The translations under genes and the position numbers were made by a program. Below, one piece after another: positions 1 to 15,485 of a stretch of 29,902 nucleotides of DNA. The notes beneath the pieces are model-generated. The model was given only the letters and a program-made list of their open reading frames with translations. It was not told where the DNA came from and did not search any database. Every line of letters begins with the position of its first letter. Position 1 is the stretch's first letter. The stretch is from a virus (Duplodnaviria; Caudoviricetes): positions 1-29,902 of the IMG/VR virus record IMGVR_UViG_3300050033_000510. One strand, written 5' to 3'.

Positions 1-70
1 GTTGATTGAAGTTATCGATTACTGGTTTCCACTTATCTAATAGAGATTCCAATATAGGTTTCTTATCCAT
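1..70 (-). CDS. Partial ORF (runs off left edge) with gp23 major-capsid-like N-terminus
   Basis: Not in ORF track. ATG at 70 gives MDKKPILESLLDKWKPVIDNFNQ..., 1 nt after the stop of 72..812. LLDKWKPVI resembles the T4 gp23 N-terminal LLNKWKPLL. Confidence 0.6.
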   Translation of the reverse strand, partial: MDKKPILESLLDKWKPVIDNFNQ

Positions 71-71
71 A

Positions 72-812
72 TTAGTCAACTGTGAATCTGAATACGAATG
101 GTAGATTTGGTTCACCTGTAAGTTCTAGGATCTTAGCTTTGAGTAATTTCCTAGAGTATACATGGTGTAGTTTACCATTTCCGGTTCTAGTATTAGATAC
201 GATACAATCGAAGAAATCTTCTTTGGTGATAGGTTCGGCCACTGGTTCTCCAATAACGAGGTCTATGAACTCTTCAGTTGTTAGTGTTTCTTTGATGTCT
301 AGTTTTTCTTCTAGCGGCTTTAGGAGATTGATTACGATCTTATCTTGTGGATTATGATCTCCAAATAAATCGAAATCATTAAAAGTAACTAATGGGGCTA
401 TTGGCAATATTAAAGAACCTGACTTAGACAGCTTGAAATAAGTCTCTTCGACTTCATATTGAATAGCTTCCATTAAGCACGTAATATGATCAGTACCCAT
501 TACGCATCTTAAATCATTAAAAAGTTGCATATCATATGGTAGAGTTACTTTTTCGTATTCTACTTTACCTGCTTGAATATCATTAAGTGTTCCATTCACT
601 AATAACTTACTGATAGCTCTACCCGCAACAGGGAGTATTAATGAAGAGAATGCTTCTCTATAGTTATTTTCTCCTATACTCTTCGTAAAGAGAGATTGTT
701 CTTCTAGAAAGACTGCTAGGATGTCGTCGCGCCTCGGTGGATACTTTGACATCATGTCAGAATCTAGTACAGCTTTCCATTTCTTGATCAGCGCATCAGT
801 GTTATGTTTCAT
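72..812 (-). CDS. Short degenerate major capsid protein (gp23-like) paralog
   Basis: LIKKWKAVLD..RRDDILAVFLEEQ, LILPVAGRAISKLL and FNDLRCVMGTDHITCLMEAIQYEVEE resemble gp23 motifs (KWxPVL..AxLLENQ; VLIxLVRRAxPxL; QDLKAxHGLDAExEL..I..EI). Only 246 aa. Confidence 0.6.
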   Translation of the reverse strand: MKHNTDALIKKWKAVLDSDMMSKYPPRRDDILAVFLEEQSLFTKSIGENNYREAFSSLILPVAGRAISKLLVNGTLNDIQAGKVEYEKVTLPYDMQLFNDLRCVMGTDHITCLMEAIQYEVEETYFKLSKSGSLILPIAPLVTFNDFDLFGDHNPQDKIVINLLKPLEEKLDIKETLTTEEFIDLVIGEPVAEPITKEDFFDCIVSNTRTGNGKLHHVYSRKLLKAKILELTGEPNLPFVFRFTVD

Positions 813-913
813 GAAAGTATTGTAGCAGCTGCCCTGGCTGGGGTGCTATCTTTTTCTGTTCTAGCTAATTGTTCTGCATTAAAGTCTATCAGCGCATCAG
901 TGTTATGTTTCAT
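809..913 (-). CDS. 34-aa upstream ORF created by the duplication
   Basis: MKHNTDALIDFNAEQLARTEKDSTPARAAATILS*. Its TGA overlaps the ATG of 72..812 (ATGA). Confidence 0.4.
   Translation of the reverse strand: MKHNTDALIDFNAEQLARTEKDSTPARAAATILS
819..827 (-). promoter_or_regulatory. Extended -10 promoter TGCTACAAT (copy 1)
   Basis: TGnTACAAT, 6 nt before ATG 812, no SD. Confidence 0.7.
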
Positions 914-919
914 GAAAGT

Positions 920-928
920 ATTGTAGCA
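920..928 (-). promoter_or_regulatory. Extended -10 promoter TGCTACAAT (copy 2)
   Basis: Second repeat copy, 6 nt before ATG 913. Confidence 0.65.
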
Positions 929-946
929 GCTGCCCTGGCTGGGGTG

Positions 947-953
947 CTAAATA
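947..953 (+). promoter_or_regulatory. T4-like late promoter CTAAATA
   Basis: 6 nt before ATG 960. The same motif precedes the neck and sheath genes. Confidence 0.8.
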
Positions 954-959
954 TGAAAT

Positions 960-3200
960 ATGAAAGTTTTGTATAAAGGTCAGATATATGAAGTATCTAA
1001 TGTTATTTTAGAAGCATACACCAAGGAAGACATCAATAGAATTTACGGATCAGCTATTGAAGAATATGTTAAGAAACATAACTTAGCTAGTAGTAATAAT
1101 AGTGATACTGCCGAAGATTCTTTAGTTAGGCTTGCTCAAGCTAAGCAATATACTATCAATGAAATTGTTGATGTAGATCCTTCGGCTGATAAAAAATACT
1201 TAGGTTCTATTACTAAATGGGTGTTAGAAAAACGTCCAGAGGATTTAAATGCTCAGATTAAAGAATATTTGAAAAAGTTTAAGAGACTATTAGATATTTA
1301 CCCTGGCGGCGACGTAGGTAATCTTTCTAAGGTTTTAGCTAAAGGTAAAATTGGATTCGATGATTTTAAGAATAAGGTTATTGAATTAACTAAGAAATTT
1401 TCAACAAATTTAGATAATCCAGATATTAAAGCAAATGACGCAAATAGTAATTACCATATAGTAAATCAGAATGATAAATATGTATGTTTTGAAATTGATC
1501 GTTGGATTGGAACTGACGACTCAAATGATGGTGATGACAATAAGCATATCTGTTTTAGGGGAGATGTCGATTGGTGTGTAAAGTACCGGGACTATTTTGA
1601 TAGATATAAGCCCCCTTATTATTATTTTATGGAAAAAGCTACAGGCAAAGAATACGCTTTGATGCATATTGGTAGTTCACAGTTAAAGAATATAAGAGAC
1701 ACTCCTCTACAAGAATATGAAGCTGAACCAATTAAAGATCTAATTTATCCTATATTGGAGAAGTATGTAGGTGAAGGTAATGACTTAACCTTTGGTGAAG
1801 ATTTTGATATTTTAATGCCGCTATATGGAGAAGATAAAACTAAGTTTGAAGCGCTGAAGATGTATATTACTTCATGGTTTTCGTACATATCAAATGGAAT
1901 GATTGAACAAATGGATGATTTGATTAAAACGTATAACTTTGATGTTGATGTTAGAGATTCTATCAATAACACCGGGTTAATATTCAACTCAACAATGGAA
2001 AACAATAATAGAGGGAATATTCACAGTACTCCAGAAGTTGCTGATTTTTTACTAAAATCCGGAGCCAATATTAATTTGGTGAACAATCATAAGAAATCGG
2101 CACTATATTATTCGGTCGAACAGCATGATACTGAATTAATACATTTTCTAATAAGTCACGGCGCTAATCCAAATGTAAAGAGTGCGTCTGGAGATTGGAT
2201 GATTGAATATACCCTCAGTAATAATTATGGACTTTTAGAATTACTATTAAAACATGGAGTTGATCCGAACATAGGATATAAAGAAGGAGATAAAGTTGCT
2301 GGTAACTACCCATTAAATGTGGCAATACGAAGAGGCGCTTATGATGCTGTTAAGTTATTATTAGAGGCTGGAGCTAATCCAAATTTGAGATTAGCTGCTA
2401 ACGGGCAAAATAGTTATGATATTGCTTTAAGATTATATTCAAATGGACCTATTACAGAAATAGTTAAAAAATATATGAAGCCCGAGAATATACTAAGTGA
2501 ATCTAAAGTTTTGTATAAGGGTCAAATATATGAAGCTCGTAATTTAAATAGGGTTTCGAGTTATTTGAGTGGTGGTGTTAAGAAGACAATATCTACGGAA
2601 TCTCCACTAAAAGATAATCATGTGGTTACGGTTTATCATGGTATTGCGTATTTGCATGATGTATTAAAGACGTTGACTAATGGAATTGATGGTACTGTAC
2701 CTGTTCAGCGTAAGGATGATTACGAAAATATAGATAATCCTAAGGGTTTATTTGTTACGCCTTCACTAAAGACTGCAGAGTATTTTGCTAATTCTGGTTA
2801 TATTATTGAATTCAATTGTAAGGTTTCTGATTTAGAGGCTCCACTGTGGAGTGTTGAAGGTCATAATGTCCAGAGTAATAGAGAAGGTGTTAGGTCTAAG
2901 TTAAGACAGAAGCATTCAGGATCTACTCATCCATTCATTAGTGGCGCAGACAGGCCCGAATTAGCCGAGATCTTTTCAAAGGGTGTAGAGCCACAGGCTT
3001 TGTTCATTGGACGCCTACAACCTAACCAGATCAAGGCCATATGGTATAATTCGAACAACGACCTCAGCACTAATGAAAGAGACGCTTCAACTGATTCTTG
3101 GAATAGAATTAGTCGAAATGATGCTATTAAGCAAGTAAAGAAAGTATCTGATAAGGATCTACAGGAAATTAAGGATATAGATTTACATACTGGAGTTTAA
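960..3200 (+). CDS. Tagged multidomain protein: unknown N-terminal domain, ankyrin repeats, second tag, ADP-ribosyltransferase-like domain
   Basis: N-terminal MKVLYKGQIYEV. Ankyrin repeats (FLLKSGANIN, LLLKHGVDPN, PLNVAIRRG..VKLLLEAGANPN). Internal KVLYKGQIYEA, then TVYHG...GLFVTPSLKTAEYFA...EPQALF (ART-like). Confidence 0.75.
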   Translation: MKVLYKGQIYEVSNVILEAYTKEDINRIYGSAIEEYVKKHNLASSNNSDTAEDSLVRLAQAKQYTINEIVDVDPSADKKYLGSITKWVLEKRPEDLNAQIKEYLKKFKRLLDIYPGGDVGNLSKVLAKGKIGFDDFKNKVIELTKKFSTNLDNPDIKANDANSNYHIVNQNDKYVCFEIDRWIGTDDSNDGDDNKHICFRGDVDWCVKYRDYFDRYKPPYYYFMEKATGKEYALMHIGSSQLKNIRDTPLQEYEAEPIKDLIYPILEKYVGEGNDLTFGEDFDILMPLYGEDKTKFEALKMYITSWFSYISNGMIEQMDDLIKTYNFDVDVRDSINNTGLIFNSTMENNNRGNIHSTPEVADFLLKSGANINLVNNHKKSALYYSVEQHDTELIHFLISHGANPNVKSASGDWMIEYTLSNNYGLLELLLKHGVDPNIGYKEGDKVAGNYPLNVAIRRGAYDAVKLLLEAGANPNLRLAANGQNSYDIALRLYSNGPITEIVKKYMKPENILSESKVLYKGQIYEARNLNRVSSYLSGGVKKTISTESPLKDNHVVTVYHGIAYLHDVLKTLTNGIDGTVPVQRKDDYENIDNPKGLFVTPSLKTAEYFANSGYIIEFNCKVSDLEAPLWSVEGHNVQSNREGVRSKLRQKHSGSTHPFISGADRPELAEIFSKGVEPQALFIGRLQPNQIKAIWYNSNNDLSTNERDASTDSWNRISRNDAIKQVKKVSDKDLQEIKDIDLHTGV

Positions 3201-3311
3201 TTAGCCTTCGCTATTTGTTTTCCTGTATTCATCCCAATCAATATCACATAACCAATAAACACCATACATTATTAGTGCGACCAATATTATACCTAGAAGG
3301 TCAAGTAGCAT
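3201..3311 (-). CDS. 36-aa single-TM protein
   Basis: Not in ORF track. MLLDLLGIILVALIMYGVYWLCDIDWDEYRKTNSEG*, SD AAGGA, TATAAT at 3335-3340; fills the gap exactly. Confidence 0.7.
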   Translation of the reverse strand: MLLDLLGIILVALIMYGVYWLCDIDWDEYRKTNSEG

Positions 3312-3345
3312 ATGTAAGTTCCTTGTCTACGAGTATTATAGCTGA

Positions 3346-3352
3346 CTAAATA
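3346..3352 (+). promoter_or_regulatory. Late promoter CTAAATA
   Basis: 5 nt before ATG 3358. Confidence 0.8.
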
Positions 3353-3357
3353 GAAAG

Positions 3358-4278
3358 ATGAAGATTTTGTATAGAGGATATTTGTATGAAGCTGTTGAGA
3401 ATCTAGCAGCTTTCCAAAATTCTCTCAGGGTTAAGTATGGTATTGATCTCGATTTATTGGCTGACAATAAGGGTGGGATTGTAATTAGTAAGATTGTAGT
3501 ACCTAAAGAGTCTAGAGGTTCTGGAGTTGGAAGTAATGTTATGCATGAGATTGTTCAGCACGCTGATACTCTGGGGGTTCCTCTATATTTGAGTCCAGCC
3601 GATAAGAAAGATGGCTGGGGTACTACATCAAAGGATAGACTAATTCAATTCTATAAGCAATTTGGATTTGTTGAAAATAAGGGTCGTAATAGAGATTTCA
3701 GATTTAGTTACAGTATGTATAGGCTTCCGAAAAAATCGACATTAATGGAAATGCCTAATAGAATCAATTCACTTGAAGACGATGATGATTACCGTTTGAA
3801 GGAAATCGAGAAGATGGCTGACGCCACAGAAGAGGTAGATTCTCAGTACTACCAGGGAACTGATTGGAGTATTCGAGAATATAAGAGCGAGCCCACCCGA
3901 GGAATGCTTTACATTACAGATAAAGATCAGCCTGTTGGGTATGTGAAATTCAATAAGTTTCATAGTATACCTAATGCAATATGGATTCAATTCACATATC
4001 TAATTGAGAATAGTCGAGGTGAAGGATTAATGTCTAAAGGGTATGAATACCTATTGAATTATTTCGGCGCTTTAGTGTCTGACACTGACATCACTGATGA
4101 TAGTGCAAACTTATATTACAAGTTATCTCAGAAATATAAGAGTGGAATATTCAACAATAGGACTAAAGAATTCAAGGAAATGAAATTCGATAGTCCTGAA
4201 TATTTACAAATAGAAAAGGAGGCTCACATTGCTGGAACCTCCAAAGATATACTATGGGTTATTATTAAGAATCCCTAG
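3358..4278 (+). CDS. Tagged tandem GNAT acetyltransferase
   Basis: MKILYRGYLYEA tag. Two acetyl-CoA motifs: VVPKESRGSGVGS...FYKQFGF and YLIENSRGEGLMS...NLYYKL. Confidence 0.8.
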   Translation: MKILYRGYLYEAVENLAAFQNSLRVKYGIDLDLLADNKGGIVISKIVVPKESRGSGVGSNVMHEIVQHADTLGVPLYLSPADKKDGWGTTSKDRLIQFYKQFGFVENKGRNRDFRFSYSMYRLPKKSTLMEMPNRINSLEDDDDYRLKEIEKMADATEEVDSQYYQGTDWSIREYKSEPTRGMLYITDKDQPVGYVKFNKFHSIPNAIWIQFTYLIENSRGEGLMSKGYEYLLNYFGALVSDTDITDDSANLYYKLSQKYKSGIFNNRTKEFKEMKFDSPEYLQIEKEAHIAGTSKDILWVIIKNP

Positions 4279-4606
4279 GCTTTAGCTTCCATGTACGCAT
4301 CACGAGATTACCAAGATAATTCCAGAATCGTATATTCTTTATTTTGATGTAACTGTATATATTTGTTTCATAGTATTTTTCATATACGAAACAAACAAAT
4401 CGTACAATTGAAATTGTAAAAGCCAATACGAATACAATTAGCGACCAACACAATCCGAAGAATCCAGACCAGAACATAATTTCAACATCATAATACGAGA
4501 ATGAGGTCATGCCGAATATCTTATCGATTGCGGGTGCTATGATAAAACCATTAAGCAACCCTGCCCCGAAATAGCAGAGTATCAAAATAAGAAATCCGTA
4601 TATCAT
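4265..4606 (-). CDS. Small membrane protein
   Basis: Two hydrophobic segments; overlaps the upstream ORF by 4 nt. Confidence 0.7.
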   Translation of the reverse strand: MIYGFLILILCYFGAGLLNGFIIAPAIDKIFGMTSFSYYDVEIMFWSGFFGLCWSLIVFVLAFTISIVRFVCFVYEKYYETNIYSYIKIKNIRFWNYLGNLVMRTWKLKPRDS

Positions 4607-4830
4607 CGCTTAACCTTTTTCTTATTCTTTGAAGATTCAATTGCCAATTGGTTTAGATAATAAATCATAAATCCTAATGTGAAGAATGGTGCCAACAATA
4701 TAGCGCCAATGAAAAACAAAGTTCCATCGTCAGAGTTTAAGCTGTCAAACATTTCACTATTACACATATATAATATGTTGATTAGTAAACAGGTTACTCC
4801 AATTACAAGTAATACAATTCCAATTGTCAT
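4603..4830 (-). CDS. Small two-TM protein
   Basis: Two TMs and a basic tail; ATGA coupling. Confidence 0.7.
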   Translation of the reverse strand: MTIGIVLLVIGVTCLLINILYMCNSEMFDSLNSDDGTLFFIGAILLAPFFTLGFMIYYLNQLAIESSKNKKKVKR

Positions 4831-5054
4831 TTCTTACCTTTCTTTTTCATGTTACCGTATGATTTCTCTAGAGTGCCTATGATAATAGCAGTAGCCATTG
4901 CGGGTGCTGCAATTATTGCAACGAGGTACATTTCATCCGAATATGCAAACCTCTTATTACTTTTTCTTTGTAAGTAGATGTATATGCATGAAACTATCGC
5001 AGAGGTCAGCCAGACTACAGCTAATATAGCTCCATTACGCATGAGTTCTCCCAT
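4827..5054 (-). CDS. Small two-TM protein (start possibly 5042)
   Basis: Two TMs and a basic tail, same architecture as 4603..4830. GGAG precedes ATG 5042. Confidence 0.7.
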   Translation of the reverse strand: MGELMRNGAILAVVWLTSAIVSCIYIYLQRKSNKRFAYSDEMYLVAIIAAPAMATAIIIGTLEKSYGNMKKKGKK

Positions 5055-5064
5055 TCATAGGTTC

Positions 5065-5093
5065 AAGATACTATACGCCCAATGCACTGTCAC
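5065..5093 (-). promoter_or_regulatory. Sigma70-type promoter GTGACA-N17-TATCTT
   Basis: 17-nt spacer; same TAGTATCTT box as at 12080 and 12140. Confidence 0.6.
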
Positions 5094-5104
5094 CTACTTT
5101 ATAA

Positions 5105-5111
5105 CTAAATA
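5105..5111 (+). promoter_or_regulatory. Late promoter CTAAATA
   Basis: 6 nt before ATG 5118. Confidence 0.8.
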
Positions 5112-5117
5112 TCCGGT

Positions 5118-5750
5118 ATGAAACTCGCTTATAGAAATTTCCTATATGAGGCTATAGATTTAGAGAATATTGTAGTGGATGGGACACCTAGACAAAATAA
5201 GAATTCCCTCGGTGAATATATAGCAGCGTCTAAAGAGTCTATTGAGAATTTTTGGAAATGGTTTGGAAATTCACAGACGGTTGATGAGCAGGGGCGACCT
5301 GTAGTTTTCTATCATGGGTCATATCAGGAATTTGATGAATTCGAGCATCCTTGGGACCGAGAAGAAACTGAAGATTATTCTGAGGGGTACAATGGGGGTA
5401 ATCTAGGTGTTGGTTTCTATTTTACCAAGAATCATGAATACGCTTCTAGATTTGGTAAGCCTGGAAAATACTACTTAAGAATAACTAACCTTTACGATTT
5501 GGCGAATGAAACCAATATTAGTGAATTGAATTCTAGATTTGAAGAAGAAAAAGACGATCTAATGTATGGCGCGATTGGTGAAGTTATTGATGACGTAATG
5601 AATGAAAAGCATTATGATGGAGCGTATGCTCAGGGTGCGGGTGGGCTTTCATATGGGGCCGACGAATGGAAGGTCATTAAGGGTTCTCAGGTGAAATCAG
5701 TAAATAACAGTGGCTCATTCTCAAATGGTAATAAGTTTGCAAAGGAATAA
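5118..5750 (+). CDS. Tagged ADP-ribosyltransferase-like protein (ART-PolyVal type)
   Basis: MKLAYRNFLYEA; NFWKWFGNSQTVDEQGRPVVFYHGS, LGVGFYFT, YYLRITN, YDG, DEWKV..SQVKS. Confidence 0.75.
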   Translation: MKLAYRNFLYEAIDLENIVVDGTPRQNKNSLGEYIAASKESIENFWKWFGNSQTVDEQGRPVVFYHGSYQEFDEFEHPWDREETEDYSEGYNGGNLGVGFYFTKNHEYASRFGKPGKYYLRITNLYDLANETNISELNSRFEEEKDDLMYGAIGEVIDDVMNEKHYDGAYAQGAGGLSYGADEWKVIKGSQVKSVNNSGSFSNGNKFAKE

Positions 5751-5751
5751 A

Positions 5752-6687
5752 ATGAAGTTACTATATCGAAATTACCTATACGAAGCGGTTTCATATGAAC
5801 AGACTCCGGCCTTCAAGGCTTGGTTTGGTGATTCCAAGGTCAAGGATGACGAAGGCCAGCCATTGAATGTATACCATGGAAGTACGCACGATTTTGATAC
5901 TTTCGATTTGAAAAAGACTTATGTTGAGGCTTATGTTGGGGGTGGATTCTATTTCACTGCTAATCCGTATGATGCAAGCGAAAACTATGCAGGTAAAGGC
6001 CCGGATGCCGAGAATAAGATTTCCCAGATTGTAGATAATGTGAATTCATACTATGATACTGATATTGCTGAGATGCTAGGAATAACTGATGAAGAATTAG
6101 ACTCAGCTAGAGAAGATGACACTCTAGACGGATTGATAAAGAATTACGCAGAGAAGAAGATAATGGGTGAAAATCCAGTTCCTAATATAATGCCTGTTTA
6201 TCTGAGAATGGTTAATCCTTTCTACATTGGAGATAATTTCAAGCAGTATTTTGAATATTACATACCATTCGATGAAGAAACTGGAGTTGAAGGTGAACCT
6301 GAAGGCGATGGGGTTTGTCTAATAACTAATCTAACCGATGATATTAATGAATTGGATTTACGAGATAATGCTGCAACATTAGCTAAGCTAATGGAAGAAC
6401 TAGAACCAATAGATGGATTTAACTCAACTCAGTTCTTTAATGCTATAAAGGATTGTGAAGCATTAATAGACGCGACAGATGACAATGGAGATAGGATAGG
6501 TCCTGGTAATTTCTTTAAGGACATAATTCTAAAATGCGGATTTGATGGTGTTATTATGGATTCTTCTATATTCCGTAATATGCCAGGAGCTGCGAATAAT
6601 CTTCACTATATTGTATATAGTCCAAATCAGGTCAAGTCGATATTCAATAAGAATCCGACTAATGACCCGAGCGTGACTAAAGAATAA
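5752..6687 (+). CDS. Tagged ADP-ribosyltransferase-like protein (ART-PolyVal type)
   Basis: Start reassigned from 5710 to ATG 5752 (SD AAGGA, tag MKLLYRNYLYEA). FKAWFGDSKVKDDEGQPLNVYHGS, GGGFYFT, MPVYLRMVNP, GFDGVI, YIVYSPNQVKS. Confidence 0.78.
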   Translation: MKLLYRNYLYEAVSYEQTPAFKAWFGDSKVKDDEGQPLNVYHGSTHDFDTFDLKKTYVEAYVGGGFYFTANPYDASENYAGKGPDAENKISQIVDNVNSYYDTDIAEMLGITDEELDSAREDDTLDGLIKNYAEKKIMGENPVPNIMPVYLRMVNPFYIGDNFKQYFEYYIPFDEETGVEGEPEGDGVCLITNLTDDINELDLRDNAATLAKLMEELEPIDGFNSTQFFNAIKDCEALIDATDDNGDRIGPGNFFKDIILKCGFDGVIMDSSIFRNMPGAANNLHYIVYSPNQVKSIFNKNPTNDPSVTKE

Positions 6688-7800
6688 TTACTTACCGTGT
6701 AGGAAAAAGTATAATAGTTCTGAGTCTTTTTCACTCACAACATTATGGTCTTCAGCTTTCTCAAGTGAAGCAACAAATAAAGAAGTCAATTTGAGTTCAT
6801 CTTTATAGTTGTAGAACAGATCTAGTTTCGTTTCTAAAGGCTTAATTCCAATATGTACCTTGCTAGGCGACACGAACTTGAAGGCTGATATTACTCCAAC
6901 TATTTTAGTTAAGTCCATATAATGTTCGAAATTAGTCAAAGACTCATTCAATGGAACGTATCCTTGGCCATCTAATACTTTTTCGGTGAGCCACTTCAAT
7001 ATCTGATTAATATGATACTGAGTATACTTGACATTATTAGCATTGATTTCATCTGGCACTATACCGCATTCAAACCATGCAAGACCATCGTCGTGAATAT
7101 CGGAATCCTTATGAGCTACTTCTTCAAAAGTATCAACTCCGATTGGTAATTCTTTTTCTTGCGCTTCGTTATTCATCTCTACTATCCTCCGGGGGTCTAA
7201 TTTTATTAGATAAGCATTTTTATCCAAGTTAAAAGCCCAAACTAATCTATTGCTAGTAGATCCATCTTTTTCATACATGAAATGGAAAGGCTGATTGAAA
7301 GATCTTTCGCTTCCACTAAACATAATCATTTCATCTATATTCAAATATTCACACACTATAAAATCTAAGAATTTATTTACGTGTAATCCTTTGAAATTGT
7401 TTTTATTTTCAGCTCTATTATCTATAGCGAATGGTAATTTTATCAGCTTATCATATATTTCCTTAGATATGTAAACAACCTTACCGGCTGAATGTCTACT
7501 ATCAATTCTCATTCTGTTAGATATTCTAAGTATATCGTTAAATGTATCTGCTATATTTTGGTCACATTTGATCTCGAATACGTTTTTCAACGCCTTCAAT
7601 TCATTTATTATCAAAGTGAACAAATAGGAATCAATGTCTTTTATGTTTTCGGCAATTTTCGTTTTAACTTCTACTTTACGCACCATTAAGTGGGTGCTTA
7701 GCATATTATCTTCATCCTGTTTAAGTACATATTCAGAAAACCAACCGATTCGATCTGGGTTAGTTAGTACTTCGTAAATTTTTAATAGTTTAGGTCCCAT
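6688..7800 (-). CDS. Degenerate gp23 capsid-core-like domain fused to degenerate gp21 prohead-protease-like domain
   Basis: ILRISNRMRIDSRHSAGKVVYISKEIYDKL ~ gp23 IExEANxIAxxTRRGxGNFIIxSxxVASAL. PDEINANNVKYT...MDLTKIVGVI...IKPLETK ~ gp21 DxxNxNGRxY...INLxxVSHxI...ILxTP. Confidence 0.5.
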   Translation of the reverse strand: MGPKLLKIYEVLTNPDRIGWFSEYVLKQDEDNMLSTHLMVRKVEVKTKIAENIKDIDSYLFTLIINELKALKNVFEIKCDQNIADTFNDILRISNRMRIDSRHSAGKVVYISKEIYDKLIKLPFAIDNRAENKNNFKGLHVNKFLDFIVCEYLNIDEMIMFSGSERSFNQPFHFMYEKDGSTSNRLVWAFNLDKNAYLIKLDPRRIVEMNNEAQEKELPIGVDTFEEVAHKDSDIHDDGLAWFECGIVPDEINANNVKYTQYHINQILKWLTEKVLDGQGYVPLNESLTNFEHYMDLTKIVGVISAFKFVSPSKVHIGIKPLETKLDLFYNYKDELKLTSLFVASLEKAEDHNVVSEKDSELLYFFLHGK

Positions 7801-7801
7801 G

Positions 7802-7999
7802 CTAGTCTACTCCATATCCAATTTCGACCCAGCCTTCAACTGCAGGGCATCCTGGTCTAACGCGAAAGCGCCTATATTCTTCGACAATCTTAGCTCTTTC
7901 AAGCCATCGAGTGTCACCCTTGAAAGCACGAGGAAGTAGTAGAAACTTAATTTTAACTCTAGTGTTGCCTATTTCTGGGCAATTAGATTTCCATTTCAT
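7802..7999 (-). CDS. Small basic hypothetical protein
   Basis: SD GAGGT; tight operon spacing. Confidence 0.7.
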   Translation of the reverse strand: MKWKSNCPEIGNTRVKIKFLLLPRAFKGDTRWLERAKIVEEYRRFRVRPGCPAVEGWVEIGYGVD

Positions 8000-8018
8000 C
8001 TCTACTACCTCACCTTTT

Positions 8019-8252
8019 TTACTTATGCTTCTTCTTGGAAACCTTAGTCTTGGTGGTATCTACCTTCTTAGCAGTATCAACCTTGACAGTGTCCTTCTTG
8101 GTGGTGTCTACCTTGACGGTATCCTTCTTGAGGGTATCAACCACTGCAGTGGTGTCACCCTTGCTAGCAGGTCCACTATCCTTACAGGAGAGGACTGTTC
8201 CTCCGAGAGCTAGACAACCAACCAAAAGCAATGCCAAATGCGACTTCTTCAT
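8019..8252 (-). CDS. Small lipoprotein with DT-rich repeats
   Basis: MKK + hydrophobic core + VLS-C lipobox; KKDTVKVDT repeats; SD AAAGGT. Confidence 0.8.
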   Translation of the reverse strand: MKKSHLALLLVGCLALGGTVLSCKDSGPASKGDTTAVVDTLKKDTVKVDTTKKDTVKVDTAKKVDTTKTKVSKKKHK

Positions 8253-8294
8253 CTTTTTACCTTTCTATTTGAGCCCTATGCGACTCTACTTGGC

Positions 8295-8303
8295 ATTGTA
8301 GCA
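8295..8303 (-). promoter_or_regulatory. Extended -10 promoter TGCTACAAT
   Basis: Heads the 8252-6688 operon. Confidence 0.7.
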
Positions 8304-8313
8304 GCCCTTCAGC

Positions 8314-8320
8314 CTAAATA
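8314..8320 (+). promoter_or_regulatory. Late promoter CTAAATA
   Basis: CTAAATATCCAC-ATG, 5-nt spacer. Confidence 0.8.
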
Positions 8321-8325
8321 TCCAC

Positions 8326-8691
8326 ATGAAAATAATATGGAATGGCATATTGTACGAGGCAAAAGAGAAGTTTGAATTGAATGGCTTGAAGGGGAAAATC
8401 AAAACTGATATTCCACCTGAGAAGAGAAGTTTAAAGAATAGGCCAAAATATGCAACTGGTAAATCTAAAATTAGATTCCAAGACTGGCTTGATATTAAGA
8501 CTATAGATAACTGTTATGGTAAAGGTAGCGATGGTAAATGGTATGGGTGGAGTCATCGAGCGGTGTATGGATTTGGTATTGGTGACACTGTGAAGAAGGG
8601 TGATGTTGCCTATAAAGGACATGAATACACTATCAAGACTGAGGAGCAGGCTAGGGAAACAGCTAAAGCATTTGCGGATGGAGTGTCGTAA
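8326..8691 (+). CDS. Tagged hypothetical protein
   Basis: MKIIWNGILYEA; contains KWYGWSHRAVYGFGIGD. Confidence 0.75.
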   Translation: MKIIWNGILYEAKEKFELNGLKGKIKTDIPPEKRSLKNRPKYATGKSKIRFQDWLDIKTIDNCYGKGSDGKWYGWSHRAVYGFGIGDTVKKGDVAYKGHEYTIKTEEQARETAKAFADGVS

Positions 8692-9995: not shown

Positions 9996-10668
9996 AGGGG
10001 ATGGTTGTTATCACGTACACAACACGACTACTAAGAAATGTTTATCTAAGAAGAAGGCTAATAAGCAATTAGCTGCTATTGAAATAGCTAAACACATGCA
10101 TGAAGCTATTATGGAAATGTTTGAACCAAATAGATCTCCGATTCAGAATAGTTCATATATGAGTACCACCGAAGATCAACATGGAGATGATTCTGAATAT
10201 GAATCTGAATTCGACGTTAGAGATAACGACGTACCTGAAGGTTCTCCTTATTGGGGTAGAAAAGCGGCTGGTTGTTTATTCTATGCACTGTCTACTGGTA
10301 ATGTTCTATTTGCCTTGCGTTCAGATAAGGTGATGGAGCCAAATACTTGGGCTGGTTTCGGTGGAAAAGTTGATGGAGCTGAAACTCCAATTGAGGCGCT
10401 TGAGCGAGAACTAGACGAAGAAGCTGGTTTCGTTGATATGGCTGATTATATCGGAGTCAGTGTTTTCGAAGACCCCGAACATGATTTTGAATACTATAAT
10501 TATCTAGTTTTGGTTAAAGAAGAATTTAACCCAACACTAAATCAAGAAACTTCCGGGTTTAAGTGGACTAGAATTGAGACTCCACCTACACCTTTACACC
10601 CTGGTTTGACTGAAGCTATGCCATATTACGTAGCTGCAGTGAGAAAGATTCAAAATGAAAAGGCATAA
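9979..10668 (+). CDS. Nudix hydrolase
   Basis: GGKVDGAETPIEALERELDEEAG matches GX5EX7REUXEEXG; C-terminal PLHPG. Confidence 0.92.
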   Translation: MPVENKGDGCYHVHNTTTKKCLSKKKANKQLAAIEIAKHMHEAIMEMFEPNRSPIQNSSYMSTTEDQHGDDSEYESEFDVRDNDVPEGSPYWGRKAAGCLFYALSTGNVLFALRSDKVMEPNTWAGFGGKVDGAETPIEALERELDEEAGFVDMADYIGVSVFEDPEHDFEYYNYLVLVKEEFNPTLNQETSGFKWTRIETPPTPLHPGLTEAMPYYVAAVRKIQNEKA

Positions 10669-10990
10669 GATCGCTGATCTGAAGAGGAGCATACTCGAAT
10701 CTAGTGTAACTAGGGAAAATATACTCTGTCTATTAGAATCTCAGTTACCACCTGAACCATATGTAACTGGTTATTGGAAAGGCACTTCAATAGATCTACC
10801 TGATGGAGTAGAATTGAAGACTGCTTTAGGTATGAAAATGATGGGTAAGGGTCTACCTGTTAAAGTATACAATAAAGATGGGGAGTATACTGCTTTTCAA
10901 GTTACAGCCAGCGGAGAATATCCAATTCAACTGACTTATGTGCTAAATGAGAGCATTGAGAGAGTTACCGATATTGTAGTTTTCGACTAG
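10655..10990 (+). CDS. Hypothetical protein
   Basis: Overlapping operon member with ILES, LLES and LNES motifs. Confidence 0.65.
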   Translation: MKRHKIADLKRSILESSVTRENILCLLESQLPPEPYVTGYWKGTSIDLPDGVELKTALGMKMMGKGLPVKVYNKDGEYTAFQVTASGEYPIQLTYVLNESIERVTDIVVFD

Positions 10991-10991
10991 A

Positions 10992-11000
10992 TGCTACAAT
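10992..11000 (+). promoter_or_regulatory. Extended -10 promoter TGCTACAAT
   Basis: Exact motif upstream of SD AAGGAG (11019-11024). Confidence 0.65.
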
Positions 11001-11030
11001 ATATTTGAAAGCCTGACTAAGGAGTAATGG

Positions 11031-11192
11031 ATGATGAAGGGTTTAGTAGCTGCAATTTTGATATATTTCATAATTTGGTACGGTCTTATTCGACCTGATC
11101 AGTTTGCTAGTTTGTTGGAGACTGTCACATATTGGGGAGATTTGATTCTAGATCAGCTCTCGACACATGTTCTACGATTGGGATCCGATTAA
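11031..11192 (+). CDS. 53-aa single-TM protein
   Basis: Not in ORF track. MMKGLVAAILIYFIIWYGLIRPDQF...; own promoter and SD; 68-nt convergent overlap with 11125..11679. Confidence 0.6.
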   Translation: MMKGLVAAILIYFIIWYGLIRPDQFASLLETVTYWGDLILDQLSTHVLRLGSD

Positions 11193-11679
11193 TACTTGAT
11201 TCCCAAAACGGGCTTCTTATATTAATCACAGGTATGTTGCGAGCCGTAGCTATTCGAACGGCTTGACCTGTGCCTCCTTGAACTTCTCCATTTTTTACGT
11301 CAGCGCAACAAACAACGAAATCAACTCCAGGTAAATGATCAACTCCATTTACTTGGAAATAATTTCGACTCATCAATTTCTTAGCAGCCTCTGACAGCCG
11401 ATTAGGTGCTGGATGATATTCAAATATAGAATCAATTGATTCTTTACTATGGCATACAACTTTATGTATTTGGTGTTCTAGATGATAATTAAAACCAACC
11501 CATGGTCTAAAACTAACACCGTGCCCTTCGCACGATAATTCGAATGTTTGATCCGAACCTTCAGCTCCACCTGAGTATAGAACATATCCCTTAGCTAATA
11601 GAATCTTAGCTATTTTGTGTAGTAGTGTTTCCTCTTTTTTGCTTATGTGCCTAGAGCCTATTCCGGCATATGAATGCAT
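11125..11679 (-). CDS. SLOG/DprA(Smf)-like nucleotide-binding protein
   Basis: YAGIGSR, LYSGGAEGSDQTFE, GGTGQAVRIA..NIPVINI. Confidence 0.85.
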   Translation of the reverse strand: MHSYAGIGSRHISKKEETLLHKIAKILLAKGYVLYSGGAEGSDQTFELSCEGHGVSFRPWVGFNYHLEHQIHKVVCHSKESIDSIFEYHPAPNRLSEAAKKLMSRNYFQVNGVDHLPGVDFVVCCADVKNGEVQGGTGQAVRIATARNIPVINIRSPFWESSINRIPIVEHVSRADLESNLPNM

Positions 11680-11867
11680 CTAAGTAAACTCCTAAACGAC
11701 TTAGGCTTGAAGATTAGAGACATGATAAAGTAGTAAAAACAACACAGAATAACACCAACGATAACTTTAGGGATTATATCCCAAGATGTTATTAGTACTG
11801 TTAGGTTTGAGAACATTCCACATAGAATAGCAATTACTATTTTGCTGATCTTTTTTGTATCTTCCAT
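11658..11867 (-). CDS. Small two-TM protein
   Basis: Two hydrophobic helices; in operon. Confidence 0.6.
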   Translation of the reverse strand: MEDTKKISKIVIAILCGMFSNLTVLITSWDIIPKVIVGVILCCFYYFIMSLIFKPKSFRSLLRCIHMPE

Positions 11868-12073
11868 TTATAAACCCCGTGTAGGTTAATTATTGTAAAG
11901 ACTATATACATGAAAACCTGAGGGTAATTAACTTGAATCACTAATCCATAATACACCCATAATACGTTGGCGACCATATAAAAAAACATGCCGTAGAAAT
12001 TTTTGTAATTTATGAGTAAACTACCACATACTGCAATCACAGCTGTAATCCAGCCGAGTACTTGTTGATTCAT
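11837..12073 (-). CDS. 3-TM PnuC/SemiSWEET-like half transporter
   Basis: Three TMs; ANVLW and INLHGVYKW motifs resemble the PnuC C-terminal repeat. Confidence 0.6.
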   Translation of the reverse strand: MNQQVLGWITAVIAVCGSLLINYKNFYGMFFYMVANVLWVYYGLVIQVNYPQVFMYIVFTIINLHGVYKWKIQKRSAK

Positions 12074-12079
12074 GTGAAG

Positions 12080-12108
12080 AAGATACTATATAATGTGGCA
12101 TGGGTCAA
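12080..12108 (-). promoter_or_regulatory. Sigma70 promoter TTGACC-N17-TATCTT, leaderless
   Basis: 6 nt before ATG 12073. Confidence 0.75.
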
Positions 12109-12116
12109 CTTTTTTG

Positions 12117-12145
12117 TTGATATTTTAGGAAGTCTCTAGTATCTT
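12117..12145 (+). promoter_or_regulatory. Sigma70 promoter TTGATA-N17-TATCTT, leaderless
   Basis: 6 nt before ATG 12152. Confidence 0.75.
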
Positions 12146-12151
12146 AGCCAT

Positions 12152-12562
12152 ATGAATACAAAACTAATACTTGTCAGAGGTGCTTCAGGGTCAGGTAAGT
12201 CAACCTATGCACGTAAGCTCGCTGAGGAAATTGGCGCTGAGGTGTATGAGGCGGATTATTACTTCCTTGTGAACGGAGAATACGTCTTCGATCCGAAGAA
12301 GCTCGGATGGGCTCACAAGTCGAACCAGGATAGAACTCGCAAGAGTCTCGAAGAAGGTAAGACTGTGATTGTGGCAAACACCCTCACGACTTCTCGCGAA
12401 ATTCGAGACTATACTTCAATCGCCGAATCGCTTGGTATTCCGGTTGAAGTGTATCGCTCGAACGCAACATTCGGCAACGTACACGGGGTGCCTGATGAGA
12501 AGGTTGCGCAGATGAGAGCTAGAATGGTTGATTACCCTGGGGAAGTCATCATCAACTCTTAA
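12152..12562 (+). CDS. P-loop kinase (AAA_33 / polynucleotide-kinase-like)
   Basis: LILVRGASGSGKST, EADYYF, VIVANT, NVHGVP. Confidence 0.88.
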   Translation: MNTKLILVRGASGSGKSTYARKLAEEIGAEVYEADYYFLVNGEYVFDPKKLGWAHKSNQDRTRKSLEEGKTVIVANTLTTSREIRDYTSIAESLGIPVEVYRSNATFGNVHGVPDEKVAQMRARMVDYPGEVIINS

Positions 12563-12858
12563 TCGCAGTTAGACAACCACGAAATGATACGCAGATACTT
12601 CTCATAGTATCTGCGTTTTTCGTTTATGCATGATGCCTTCAATATGTACGCCCACTTCGCACCGTTTTCTACCTTAGCTCTACAAAGTAGACATACTGGT
12701 AATTGCTTACATTCTACTTCAATCTTATGATAGAAATCTATTTTGTTATTACACAAGCAACATTCGTCGCCAAATAGCTTCTTCATTCTTACTAGGTTTT
12801 TATCCACGGGGTTTAGCAACTTATCAACGAGATCCTGCAAGTGAGAGAAAAACCCCAT
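12559..12858 (-). CDS. Small Zn-ribbon-like protein
   Basis: CCLC...CLLC. Start reassigned to MGFF (12858, purine-rich SD), which avoids overlap with the upstream gene. Confidence 0.55.
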   Translation of the reverse strand: MGFFSHLQDLVDKLLNPVDKNLVRMKKLFGDECCLCNNKIDFYHKIEVECKQLPVCLLCRAKVENGAKWAYILKASCINEKRRYYEKYLRIISWLSNCD

Positions 12859-12895
12859 GATGAACCCCTTTTTTATTCGCTCATATTGCTGATAT

Positions 12896-13639
12896 TTATT
12901 TAATTGTAGACATATTTGTATTTTTAATTTTCTTCCAAATCGAATATAGTGTAGTTGATATTTGCTGCCTTGCGTCGTCCGTGAGCACATCGTTATAGTA
13001 TGTGTGGAAATCTTTTTCTGGGATCTTCCCTATTTTTTCAAACATTTCTTCCATGAAAGGTCCGAAGTCGTAGCCTGATACTTCATTAGCGAAAGTAGTA
13101 TTTTCCTTTAAGTAAATTAACACTTCATGTAAAAAAGAATTTATTTCAAGTGTATTATTTGAATACCCGAAGTTATATCCTTCTATATTATGGTCTGGAT
13201 TATTTGGTTGTATCCCGTATCCGTCTTTTTTAAATTCACCATTTATGTCTTGATAGAAGTGATTTAATTCATGTGCGATTCCGGTGTAGTCTCTACCATA
13301 TAGTGTTCCAGTCTTTCTAATTCTATCTGGTATTTGAATTAATGGGTATTTGAGTCCAGACCTATCAGTTACATGGTAATAGAAATCATTGCTATTGACA
13401 TATCCAATTCTCAAATCTTTCAACTCAGCCGGGGTTTCCATGTTGAGTTTAGATAGAACATCGCCTAACTTGAAAATATCACCGTCTGCTATTTTAGTTC
13501 CGCTATTGTATGCTGAAATTATTGCATTCAGTATTAGTTTAGAATTGACTTGTAGTTTATCCGCATACTTTTCATTCAATACTCCAGTATTGGATTTACT
13601 CTCAGATTCATAAACAATTCCACGGTATATCAATTTCAT
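12896..13639 (-). CDS. Tagged zincin-like metallopeptidase
   Basis: MKLIYRGIVYES; IAHELNHFYQ (HExxH) plus downstream EINSF. Confidence 0.72.
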   Translation of the reverse strand: MKLIYRGIVYESESKSNTGVLNEKYADKLQVNSKLILNAIISAYNSGTKIADGDIFKLGDVLSKLNMETPAELKDLRIGYVNSNDFYYHVTDRSGLKYPLIQIPDRIRKTGTLYGRDYTGIAHELNHFYQDINGEFKKDGYGIQPNNPDHNIEGYNFGYSNNTLEINSFLHEVLIYLKENTTFANEVSGYDFGPFMEEMFEKIGKIPEKDFHTYYNDVLTDDARQQISTTLYSIWKKIKNTNMSTIK

Positions 13640-13644
13640 GTGGA

Positions 13645-13651
13645 TATTTAG
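13645..13651 (-). promoter_or_regulatory. Late promoter CTAAATA
   Basis: CTAAATATCCAC-ATG, identical to 8314-8328. Confidence 0.8.
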
Positions 13652-13683
13652 TGTTTACCTTATGCTAATCGGCTAACGTACCT

Positions 13684-13690
13684 CTAAATA
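13684..13690 (+). promoter_or_regulatory. Late promoter CTAAATA
   Basis: Followed by SD GAGGT and ATG 13707. Confidence 0.75.
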
Positions 13691-13706
13691 TACTAACGAG
13701 GTAATC

Positions 13707-14354
13707 ATGGCGATCATAACTTTAGGTGGAGTTGAATACATAACAGAAGCGATAGAAGATGAATCTATACCAGCTCATGATTATGATAGTGTGATAAATG
13801 TGTCTGAAGCGCAAGATCCAGATGAATGGTTTGGGCGCGTACAATCTGAATGGCCTAATCTGCCAGATGAGATTAAGCATAAGGTTATTGATAGCACTGG
13901 CGCATATGTCGGACAGTTGAATAGTCAAGTAAATGCACCAGCTCCTGCCGCACCTCCAGCACCTGGAACAACGCCGAGTCTAGAATCAGACCCTAATGAC
14001 GTACAGAATGATCCAAATGCAACAGTTACAGAAGCTCCATTAGATGAAGCGGTAAAGGATTCTGCGGGTAATGAAGTATATGATTTCACCGAAGGTAAGC
14101 AGCACGCCAAAGCCCTTGACAATGCAGCACTAGAGCATGTAAGAAAAGATCTTATTGATGTCATTAAGATTCAAGAAAAGTCTCACAGTGCAGGTCACAA
14201 TACACCAAAGCTCGGATATTATTGGGACGAATACTGGACTGTTATTGATGAAATTGCCCGTAGAATGAAGGCTGGTCAGCAATTCAATCTAGAGCCATGG
14301 TCGCTAGATGGTGGTAGACAGGTTGATGATAAGATACAGGAACTAGGAGAATAA
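13707..14354 (+). CDS. Late acidic protein, probable internal head protein
   Basis: ITEA, VSEA, VTEA and LDEA candidate protease sites; Pro/Ala linker. Confidence 0.65.
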   Translation: MAIITLGGVEYITEAIEDESIPAHDYDSVINVSEAQDPDEWFGRVQSEWPNLPDEIKHKVIDSTGAYVGQLNSQVNAPAPAAPPAPGTTPSLESDPNDVQNDPNATVTEAPLDEAVKDSAGNEVYDFTEGKQHAKALDNAALEHVRKDLIDVIKIQEKSHSAGHNTPKLGYYWDEYWTVIDEIARRMKAGQQFNLEPWSLDGGRQVDDKIQELGE

Positions 14355-14383
14355 AAAGAAAAGACCTCGAAAGAGGTCTTTTT
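14352..14383. terminator. Bidirectional intrinsic terminator
   Basis: AAGACCTC-GAAA-GAGGTCTT flanked by A and T runs, between convergent genes. Confidence 0.9.
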
Positions 14384-14384
14384 G

Positions 14385-15044
14385 TTAGCTCAAATCTCTT
14401 ATGTCTTTTTCTGTTGCTAGGAACTCTCGCTTAAAAACAGTAGGTCCTAATTGTTCTAGCATACACTTAGCCCATTCAACATCTCGACCTTGTACATCTT
14501 TCCAAGTCACTACCTGCCTTGGTAGACGTAATCCAATTTCATTTTCTAGGTCGAAAATGTGAACAATTGGTTTTTCTGGTAAATTAACCGCTATCTCAAT
14601 ATCGTGAGGTAGTCTCATTTCATAGTTATAGAAAATGTAGTCGTATTCTGTATGTGCTCTTATTTTATTAGAAATTAGTATTGAGCTACCGTTAATACAT
14701 TGGCATAGTATAGTGTCACTTTGTTTAAAGAATTTAAACTCATATGGTATTAGGTTTTTAATTTTTGCTATTATCTCATATAGTTCATTTTGATGATGTC
14801 TAATATGCTCAAACTTAGTTCCTATTAGTATTTTAGTCCCTGGGTAAAATATTGCTTTCCATATTGAACTTGCATATATTGAATAATTTTTACCAGTCTG
14901 TCTAGCCCATGTGTGAATATAATGCTCGTCTAATAGAGCTAAGGATTTTATTTGATAATCCCTAAGTTGAACACCTAATACTTCACGGATAAACTTTACC
15001 GGATTCTTTCGGTATATTCGAAAAGTCTGATCATCCATTTGCAT
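14385..15044 (-). CDS. Truncated degenerate terminase-ATPase paralog
   Basis: Aligns by eye to TerL in this window: KNPVKFI/KDPIYFI, LRDYQI/LRPYQI, WARQTGK/WGRQSGK, WKAIFYP/WKIIFNP, WKDVQGRDVEW/WNDVPGRDDDW, LGPTVFKREF/LGEVAFKQEY. No Walker B DE and no nuclease domain. Confidence 0.88.
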   Translation of the reverse strand: MQMDDQTFRIYRKNPVKFIREVLGVQLRDYQIKSLALLDEHYIHTWARQTGKNYSIYASSIWKAIFYPGTKILIGTKFEHIRHHQNELYEIIAKIKNLIPYEFKFFKQSDTILCQCINGSSILISNKIRAHTEYDYIFYNYEMRLPHDIEIAVNLPEKPIVHIFDLENEIGLRLPRQVVTWKDVQGRDVEWAKCMLEQLGPTVFKREFLATEKDIRDLS

Positions 15045-15441
15045 TAGTTTCCTCTACATTTGGTTTCCTAGTGTAGACTGACACTTCAACATCCTTGATT
15101 TCAGCTTCGAACTCAAATTCTTCGTATATTTTTTTCAATTTATTCATAGAGATGTCACTAGCTGGAATCTCTGAAGTTTCTGTGGCGAGTGGTATTAGCT
15201 GTAAGGTGTCTCCGTTCATATCGGCTGAACGAGAAATCAAACTCAATAGTTGACTAAAGTAGCCTTTATTCCGATACTCTGGATAAATTGCAATTAGGTT
15301 AATGAAAACTAAATGCTCGTCATAGTATTCTACTTGTATTCGACCTATGACATTACCTTCAGCGTCATATATCAATCTATGGTTAATCCAAATGCCTTCA
15401 AGCGAGGCCATGTTAATCAATACATCAAGGAATTTCTTCAT
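15031..15441 (-). CDS. GNAT acetyltransferase
   Basis: IAIYPEYRNKGYFS...LKKIYEEFEF. Confidence 0.8.
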   Translation of the reverse strand: MKKFLDVLINMASLEGIWINHRLIYDAEGNVIGRIQVEYYDEHLVFINLIAIYPEYRNKGYFSQLLSLISRSADMNGDTLQLIPLATETSEIPASDISMNKLKKIYEEFEFEAEIKDVEVSVYTRKPNVEETNANG

Positions 15442-15476
15442 TGTGTTCTCTCGATAGAGGAGTCGTGTCTACTGTA

Positions 15477-15485
15477 ATTGTAGCA
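15477..15485 (-). promoter_or_regulatory. Extended -10 promoter TGCTACAAT
   Basis: Heads the GNAT/mini-terminase operon. Confidence 0.7.

Follow-up and report, generated by a model that had tools for sequence, protein, structure and literature searches.

The window studied here is a 29,902-nucleotide (29.9-kb) stretch, IMG/VR record IMGVR_UViG_3300050033_000510, of an uncultured T4-like jumbo phage, in which genes for the terminase, gp15, a gp14-type neck protein, and the tail sheath are present. On its minus strand lie three open reading frames (ORFs) that resemble shortened copies of the phage's own head and packaging proteins: 72–812 (246 amino acids; major capsid protein gp23), 6688–7800 (370 amino acids; prohead protease gp21, joined to a probable gp23 remnant), and 14385–15044 (219 amino acids; large terminase gp17, or TerL). 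An earlier, sequence-only reading of the same DNA had proposed them as co-regulated decoys of bacterial immune sensors, and all three are indeed open. Judged by their sequences, none would perform the function of its parent family. The nearest isolate matches to the window terminase are cyanophage terminases, with 30–34% identity at best, and at least half of the sampled words of positions 1–8400 are present in four runs, all of them peat metagenomes and one flagged as the possible origin of the window. The relatives compared are the complete genome G001 (306 kb, TerL 79% identical) and the fragments G002–G008, L133, and L135. Across this clade, the parent proteins are 86–95% (gp23), 81–85% (gp21), and 79–83% (TerL) identical.

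The ORF at 14385–15044 encodes a mini-TerL that consists of the ATPase domain only. Its parent, the true large terminase gp17, lies at 22657–24414 on the same strand with its motifs intact. Mini-TerL aligns with the window TerL at 31% identity over 98 residues of the N-terminal ATPase and at 43% over 42 residues of the lid segment, and it is matched by the PHROG terminase family (E 3e-6). Together with the orthologs, these matches bear out the earlier assignment of the ORF as gp17-like. The orthologs are found in synteny behind a GNAT acetyltransferase gene in G002 (41% identity) and G001 (30% identity), where TerL itself is 83% and 79% identical. In the window, this GNAT gene (15031–15441, minus strand) is the first gene of the mini-TerL operon, which is headed by a promoter box at 15477–15485; the same order is kept in G001 and G002. 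All three mini-TerL orthologs retain the adenine-binding motif LRxYQ and the Walker A motif RQ[TS]GK, the residue following the Walker A lysine being Asn, Asn, and Asp instead of Ser. Walker B (DE) and motif III are missing from all three, and so is the RNase H-fold nuclease domain; the window copy stops where TerL residue ∼270 aligns. A wider scan with mini-TerL returned 75 loci, of which 72 were weak and, to judge from their length, chiefly regular terminases from other phages, with nine short frames among them. The terminase gene of G003 (L172:7532–11030) is broken by insertions into three matching pieces.

Mini-TerL resembles vs.8 of phage T4 in that both are 219-amino acid, ATPase-only terminase paralogs outside the late module with an RQSGK-type Walker A. 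However, vs.8 keeps both Walker A and Walker B (PMC13601566), whereas the window protein has no Walker B DE and, in a further difference from vs.8, retains the C-terminal lid motif of T4-like TerL. The two are not orthologous (vs.8 scores 1.4 bits on the mini-TerL profile; hhalign P 0.1), so ATPase-only terminase copies arose at least twice. Protein vs.8 activates the sensor EcAvs2 (PMC13601566). Ksap1 and Ksap2 are small phage proteins of terminase-ATPase-like structure that bind Avs2 (PMC11564622, PMC13601566); these triggers are without clear sequence homology to terminase, whereas mini-TerL is a recognizable duplicate.

The ORF at 6688–7800 is an in-frame fusion of two unlike halves. Its C-terminal half (6688–7176) is predicted to assume the gp21 prohead-protease fold. 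A four-sequence AlphaFold2 model of this half (pLDDT 73.7) retrieved T4 gp21 (PDB code 5JBL) in Foldseek with an E value of 3.7e-7 and a TM score of 0.61, and superposed on it in VIA with a Z score of 14.5 and an rmsd of 2.5 over 147 residues, the next match having a Z score of 5.5. The corresponding family profile aligns with that of 17 true gp21 proteins at an hhalign P of 1e-5. The sequence-only reading had called the ORF a gp23–gp21 composite by eye; the gp21 half stands, and the gp23 half is only probable.

We refer to this protease copy as dead gp21, a family of 11 members, seven of which are proteins from a database search. Its active-site columns were placed by profile alignment, the Ser column with room for a one-column shift. 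The catalytic His column (T4 His-85) holds His in 3 of the 11 members and Glu in the window; the catalytic Ser column (T4 Ser-140) holds Ser in none and Thr in the window, with a Ser or Thr one column on in all 11; and the Arg of the S.RG motif is found in no member (Leu in the window). A strongly conserved residue set runs through the 11 sequences, and the full gp21 fold appears to be kept. Compared with T4 gp21, the window copy shares the fold but has lost the catalytic His, Ser, and Arg, has no C-terminal extension, follows a non-late promoter, and is fused to the probable capsid remnant. A complex prediction with three true gp21 subunits and one dead gp21 gave 0.09 (mark 0.32) and weighs neither way. 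The operon head (7802–8303, minus strand) comprises a box at 8295–8303, a lipoprotein-like ORF at 8019–8252, and a small ORF at 7802–7999. The order of box, lipoprotein-like gene, and dead gp21 is conserved in G001, L133, and L135, where dead gp21 is a standalone gene of 162–191 amino acids.

The N-terminal half (7177–7800, 207 amino acids) is probably a gp23-like remnant of spine and A-domain, as suggested by a weak profile alignment with the gp23 spine and A-domain (hhalign P 0.018; on the gp23 profile, 2 of 1000 shuffles score as high). It was not lifted when the gp23-like ORF of G001 was added to the gp23 profile (E 1.9), its single-sequence AlphaFold2 model has a pLDDT of 33, and it is missing from the three standalone dead-gp21 orthologs fetched as DNA. 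Pairwise BLAST of the entire ORF against true gp23 and gp21 gave no match, nor did sequence searches of Pfam, PHROGs, NCBIfam, and the PDB. In three other runs, contigs extend across the entire ORF with 0–1 differences, and the fusion is therefore not an assembly artefact.

The ORF at 72–812 encodes a mini-gp23 composed of an N-terminal segment (residues 5–73), a spine region (residues 79–126), and a probable A-domain remnant. Against a profile of 23 full-length gp23 proteins it scores 20.4 bits (E 2e-5), and none of 1000 shuffles exceeded 3.0 bits. Indeed, among 1418 ORFs of G001 the true gp23 is its best match (E 2e-4). The protein is colinear with clade gp23 but lacks gp23 residues ∼85–185 and the last ∼50 residues. 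The former region, which by T4 anatomy we take to be the E-loop/insertion region, has no counterpart in the copy, so that a complete HK97 fold with E-loop, capable of assembly, would be lacking. At about half the length of gp23 (Pfam PF07068) and behind a non-late promoter, the copy also differs from gp24-type vertex paralogs, which are near full length. No match to it was found in Pfam, PHROGs, NCBIfam, or PDB sequence searches, and ESM Atlas models of this ORF and of 6688–7800 (pTM 0.23–0.25) gave no usable match.

The operon of mini-gp23 continues into a second gene, of which only the first 23 codons (1–70, minus strand) precede the window end. This frame, which the sequence-only reading had listed as a further gp23-like ORF, is open, but it is a truncated gene and not a whole one. 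It resembles the N-terminal 'KW.PV' segment of gp23 (4.9 bits, a score as high being reached by none of 1000 shuffles) and is probably gp23-like, although with 23 residues the match is no more than suggestive. A search of viral contigs for an extension of this ORF found none.

Relatives carry different mini-gp23 genes. G006 and G007 encode proteins of 186 and 214 amino acids near the capsid gene that represent the A-domain and pass the Pfam cut-off (Gp23, E 4e-8), each directly preceded by TGCTAYAAT. These two copies and 72–812 all score best on the gp23 of their own clade. Their sequences thus indicate that mini-capsids arise repeatedly from the phage's own gp23 gene. A weaker candidate in G001 (154826–155614; hhalign P 1e-4) belongs to an operon headed by TGCTACCAT; shuffling equalled its score in 11 of 1000 trials with the gp23 profile as such and in none of 1000 once the two minis had been added. 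Another G001 ORF (156172–156822), gp23-like by eye, was dropped, as 109 of 1000 shuffles reach its score. Among 105 clade ortholog families, short non-member matches to structural genes involved gp23, TerL, and a portal fragment. The latter is a possible mini-portal, a 75-amino acid ORF at G001 34662–34889 (L007:15662–15889, minus strand) with an ortholog in G006 (L167:7394–7615), the middle of which copies the portal segment 'TGNMPP.KA' (profile E 0.0098; 45–50% identity over 20 residues). Its operon begins at a late box.

The confirmed copies share a promoter element. The box TGCTACAAT, of the extended −10 type, occurs at 819–827, 920–928, 8295, and 15477 ahead of the copies and at 10992, as had been reported; these five copies compare with 0.33 expected, and none of 100 shuffles reaches five. 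A conserved −35 element was sought across 33 box copies and not found. The boxes at 819 and 920 (minus strand) are parts of one 62-bp direct repeat (units 787–848 and 888–949), each unit of which contains the box and the first nine codons of 72–812, so that the window holds four independent sites. The upstream unit opens a 34-codon ORF, the stop of which overlaps the ATG of 72–812; unitigs of the repeat turn up in run X4 too. The ATG of 72–812 lies 6 nucleotides past the box, and its mRNA is likely leaderless. In many other cases as well, genes start 5–6 nucleotides after the box, suggesting leaderless mRNAs. The fifth box precedes, as claimed, a small membrane ORF of 53 amino acids (box and ORF, 10992–11192, plus strand). 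The ORF has no similarity to structural genes, and both box and ORF are kept in G001, G002, and L133. The claim that no late box precedes the candidate ORFs also holds: the window contains 12 copies of the late box CTAAATA, none of them in front of these ORFs in the same orientation, and the one at 947 faces away from 72–812. The promoter box of the copies often stands back to back with an opposite-strand CTAAATA (window 928/947, 8303/8314, and 15485/15514; G006 26788/26794; G001 147983/147973).

The box does not, however, mark a dedicated paralog regulon, as the sequence-only reading had supposed; it is a general promoter class of the clade, an outcome which that reading had itself listed among those that would refute it. 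Only 2 of the 19 TGCTAYAAT sites in G001 head paralog operons; others precede GroES, dUTPase/clamp loader, primase, and UvsX/helicase genes, and the motif also heads the DNA polymerase gene in G005 and G006. The copies look box-enriched in the window because the window lies in the late region. Nor is the box the phage's main early promoter, an assignment we rejected since a separate class exists: T[TA]GAC-N16-19-TATCTT occurs 82 times in G001, in 70 cases on the minus strand past 150 kb and amid small genes. This is likely the early promoter class, the one that the paralogs do not use. In the window, GTATCTT boxes of this class stand divergently within 12080–12145 (12086, minus strand, with TTGAC upstream; 12139, plus strand), and a third is at 5071 (minus strand). 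By T4-like gene classes, TGCTACAAT is likely a replication-gene or middle promoter, which may be recognized by a host sigma factor or by a phage-encoded one; G001 encodes three sigma-70-like proteins (30826–31551, 82982–84211, and 171319–172053), a number that matches the three promoter classes. There is thus no single dedicated regulon, each copy having been recruited separately to a general promoter, and co-regulation, as far as promoter motifs tell, reduces to timing: all confirmed paralogs stand behind a non-late box. In one metatranscriptome run, eight short contigs map to five places. Four of these places are in the box-headed operons, which make up 29% of the stretch; this is a weak hint, as genes cannot be ranked from contigs and DNA may be present.

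The copies have diverged much faster than their parents. Nonsynonymous divergence (dN) is 0.57–0.69 for mini-TerL versus 0.12–0.15 for TerL, 0.36–0.60 for dead gp21 versus 0.10–0.14 for gp21 (the parent pairs being from other genome pairs), and 0.76 between the mini-gp23 of G006 and G007 versus 0.11 between their gp23. Over all comparisons, the copies range from 0.36 to 0.76 and the parents from 0.06 to 0.15; the terminase and protease copies evolve ∼3–6 times faster than their parents. Synonymous sites are saturated in the paralog pairs (pS 0.66–0.88), the orthologs of the copies stay open at 30–58% identity, and third codon positions change most. Synonymous divergence (dS) is finite for 3 of 10 paralog pairs, in which the ratio dN/dS is 0.26–0.43. 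By these substitution patterns, the mini-TerL and dead gp21 orthologs are under purifying selection. Neutral decay of these two families is ruled out by the open syntenic orthologs and the preponderance of third-position changes. For 72–812, a 98% identical allele differs at four residues and contigs differ at six bases over 1–816; these very few changes give no sign of constraint.

What the copies keep and what they lose is suggestive in the light of known phage sensors. Retained are the TerL ATPase domain, the capsid A-domain, and the prohead-protease fold, which are the parts that known sensors read; lost are nuclease and Walker B, the protease His/Ser/Arg, and the E-loop region, which serve catalysis or assembly. 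Avs7, Avs8, and Avs10 bind the A-domain of major capsid protein monomers (PMC13581612), the TerL ATPase is read by Avs2 and Upx (PMC13601566), and cleavage by gp21 activates CBASS cyclases, which gp21 without catalytic activity does not do (10.64898/2026.03.04.709575). We tentatively propose, with somewhat less than even confidence, that the copies are binding-only baits that occupy bacterial sensors of late head proteins ahead of the authentic proteins. As truncated versions of this phage's capsid, prohead protease, and terminase, the copies, devoid of catalytic or assembly parts and placed behind a box of replication genes, would be expressed in the middle period and would stay monomeric and out of the virion. 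The terminase ATPase copy would then bind Avs/Upx-type sensors, the capsid A-domain copy Avs7/8/10-type sensors, and the protease copy a CBASS cyclase or another sensor. The weakest step is that the copies would have to occupy these sensors without triggering them.

Such a mechanism has a precedent in DSAD1 of SPbeta, which blocks DSR2 by taking the trigger site of the tail tube (PMC11087589), that is, by occupying the sensor site of a structural trigger without activation. DSAD1 is established by structure and biochemistry and is not described in that source as a duplicate of the tube gene, whereas here three different head proteins are copied and sensor binding is proposed. In T4, the vs.8 promoter was used to express vs.3 to vs.8 (PMC13243611), and vs.3 is the anti-Thoeris sponge TadIV-1 (PMC13728456). 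The copies themselves are real and recurrent in the clade, and their closest published counterparts are vs.8, Ksap1/2, and DSAD1. In the openly accessible literature searched for such paralogs as decoys, only precedents of the vs.8/Ksap and DSAD1 types were found; this literature, including PMC7824862 and 10.1101/2025.06.06.658234, yielded nothing on dead-gp21 copies, on mini-gp23 copies, or on all three together. A broader version of the proposal is possible but doubtful: that the clade repeatedly duplicates sensed proteins (capsid A-domain, terminase ATPase, prohead protease, and perhaps portal), cuts them back to the part that is sensed, inactivates them, puts them under a middle promoter, and even fuses them, yielding renewable, multi-target, self-derived baits that bind without triggering.

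Several points weigh against baits. The isolated TerL ATPase domain activates EcAvs2 and Upx, Upx mostly continues to respond to catalytic mutants, Walker B mutants included, and co-expression of vs.8 and EcAvs2 is toxic (PMC13601566). Because the ATPase domain alone and vs.8 trigger sensors, a shrunken core is no less likely to trigger than to block. SeAvs3 also binds the native nuclease domain and would be the best candidate for inhibition by a copy that is ATPase only. The authors of that study leave the role of vs.8 open and suggest anti-defence against something else. The box is generic, as its 19 sites in G001 attest, and the operons open with a GNAT gene and a lipoprotein-like ORF, neither of which is a paralog. 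An arms race and relaxed constraint would account equally well for the fast divergence; with synonymous sites saturated, positive selection and relaxed constraint are inseparable. No ortholog of 72–812 or of the N-terminal half of 6688–7800 was found, so that the evidence for selection comes from the other copies.

Some of these points would be explained if each copy had a separate, unrelated job, such as an ATP-binding inhibitor of another defence or host enzyme, as suggested for vs.8 and Ksap1/2, with the promoter in common only by timing. The generic box and the unrelated operon partners agree with this, as do the adenine-binding and P-loop residues kept in all three mini-TerL orthologs and the suggestion that Avs2 came to recognize terminase look-alikes whose own role may be anti-defence (PMC13601566). 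Separate jobs leave unexplained, however, why sensed head proteins were copied repeatedly and trimmed to the sensed domain, and why a capsid-like and a protease-like part were fused in frame; we regard this alternative as rather unlikely. A somewhat lower probability attaches to head-assembly regulators, dead subunits that would be made ahead of the late proteins and bind the gp21 oligomer, the gp23 monomer, and gp17 or the portal and so delay cleavage, shell formation, and packaging, with only an indirect immune benefit (less free protease for CBASS). Every copy derives from head or packaging genes, the closest match of the mini-capsids is gp23 of the same phage, dead gp21 retains a complete fold together with its conserved residue set, and even the portal segment is copied in the ORF of G001 and G006. 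Yet partners of near-invariant parents would be expected to be conserved themselves, and the copies diverge several times faster and, in the case of the mini-capsids, vary in place and extent between genomes.

Dead subunits are also natural dominant negatives, and they might block head assembly in related phages infecting the same cell or in satellites dependent on borrowed head and packaging machinery. Fast divergence from the own parent could then spare the phage itself, but no satellite or competitor is known for the clade, and the mini-capsids remain nearest to the gp23 of their own clade. We consider poisoning improbable. Least probable, in our view, are functionless decaying duplicates. 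This explanation would suit 72–812, with its very few allele changes and no sign of constraint in them, and the N-terminal half of 6688–7800, neither of which has a detected ortholog; against it, mini-TerL (three genomes) and dead gp21 (11 sequences) remain open and syntenic across a saturated synonymous distance, their promoters are kept, and dead gp21 is predicted still to fold.

The role of phage proteins that look like terminase was called an open question in 2026 (PMC13601566). Since a single genome here contains look-alikes of three kinds, for which orthologs, parents, and the extent of the deletions are known, bait, trigger, and assembly regulator become directly testable against one another. 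If they are baits, they would represent a general means by which large phages counter sensors of conserved folds beyond the reach of mutational escape and would show the conversion of a trigger into an inhibitor. If they are not, they are still conserved middle genes of a class that has no annotation and is overlooked in gene-family searches.

Further genes of the window deserve mention. The papain-family cysteine protease (15543–16331) lies behind a late box, is not found at the equivalent place in G001 and G002, and has its distant relatives mostly in Bacteroidota genomes; a host search with this gene gave matches of only 26–45% identity, which allows no host assignment. A DprA/SLOG-like gene, two small membrane ORFs, and an AAA_33 kinase (11125–12562) stand behind the divergent early-class boxes; this set is conserved in three relatives and, by eye, may be nucleotide-related counter-defence. 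Late-region genes have an N-terminal tag in common, MK..Y.G..YE (ORF starts 960, 3358, 5118, 5752, 8326, 8691, and 12896). At positions ∼2500–6050, the tagged-gene cluster is represented in other runs by a divergent allele (302 differences in 3547 bases), whereas 6054–8400 is nearly invariant between runs, which suggests a hot spot of recombination or selection at ∼2500–6050. The tagged cargo includes an ankyrin protein, a GNAT, two ART-PolyVal ADP-ribosyltransferases, and one Tad6-domain protein; the Tad6-domain gene (PF25188, E 1.5e-16) adjoins the dead-protease operon. The tag is reminiscent of capsid-targeting sequences that contain a protease cleavage site, and from their sequences the tagged proteins are probably packaged, injected counter-defence proteins.

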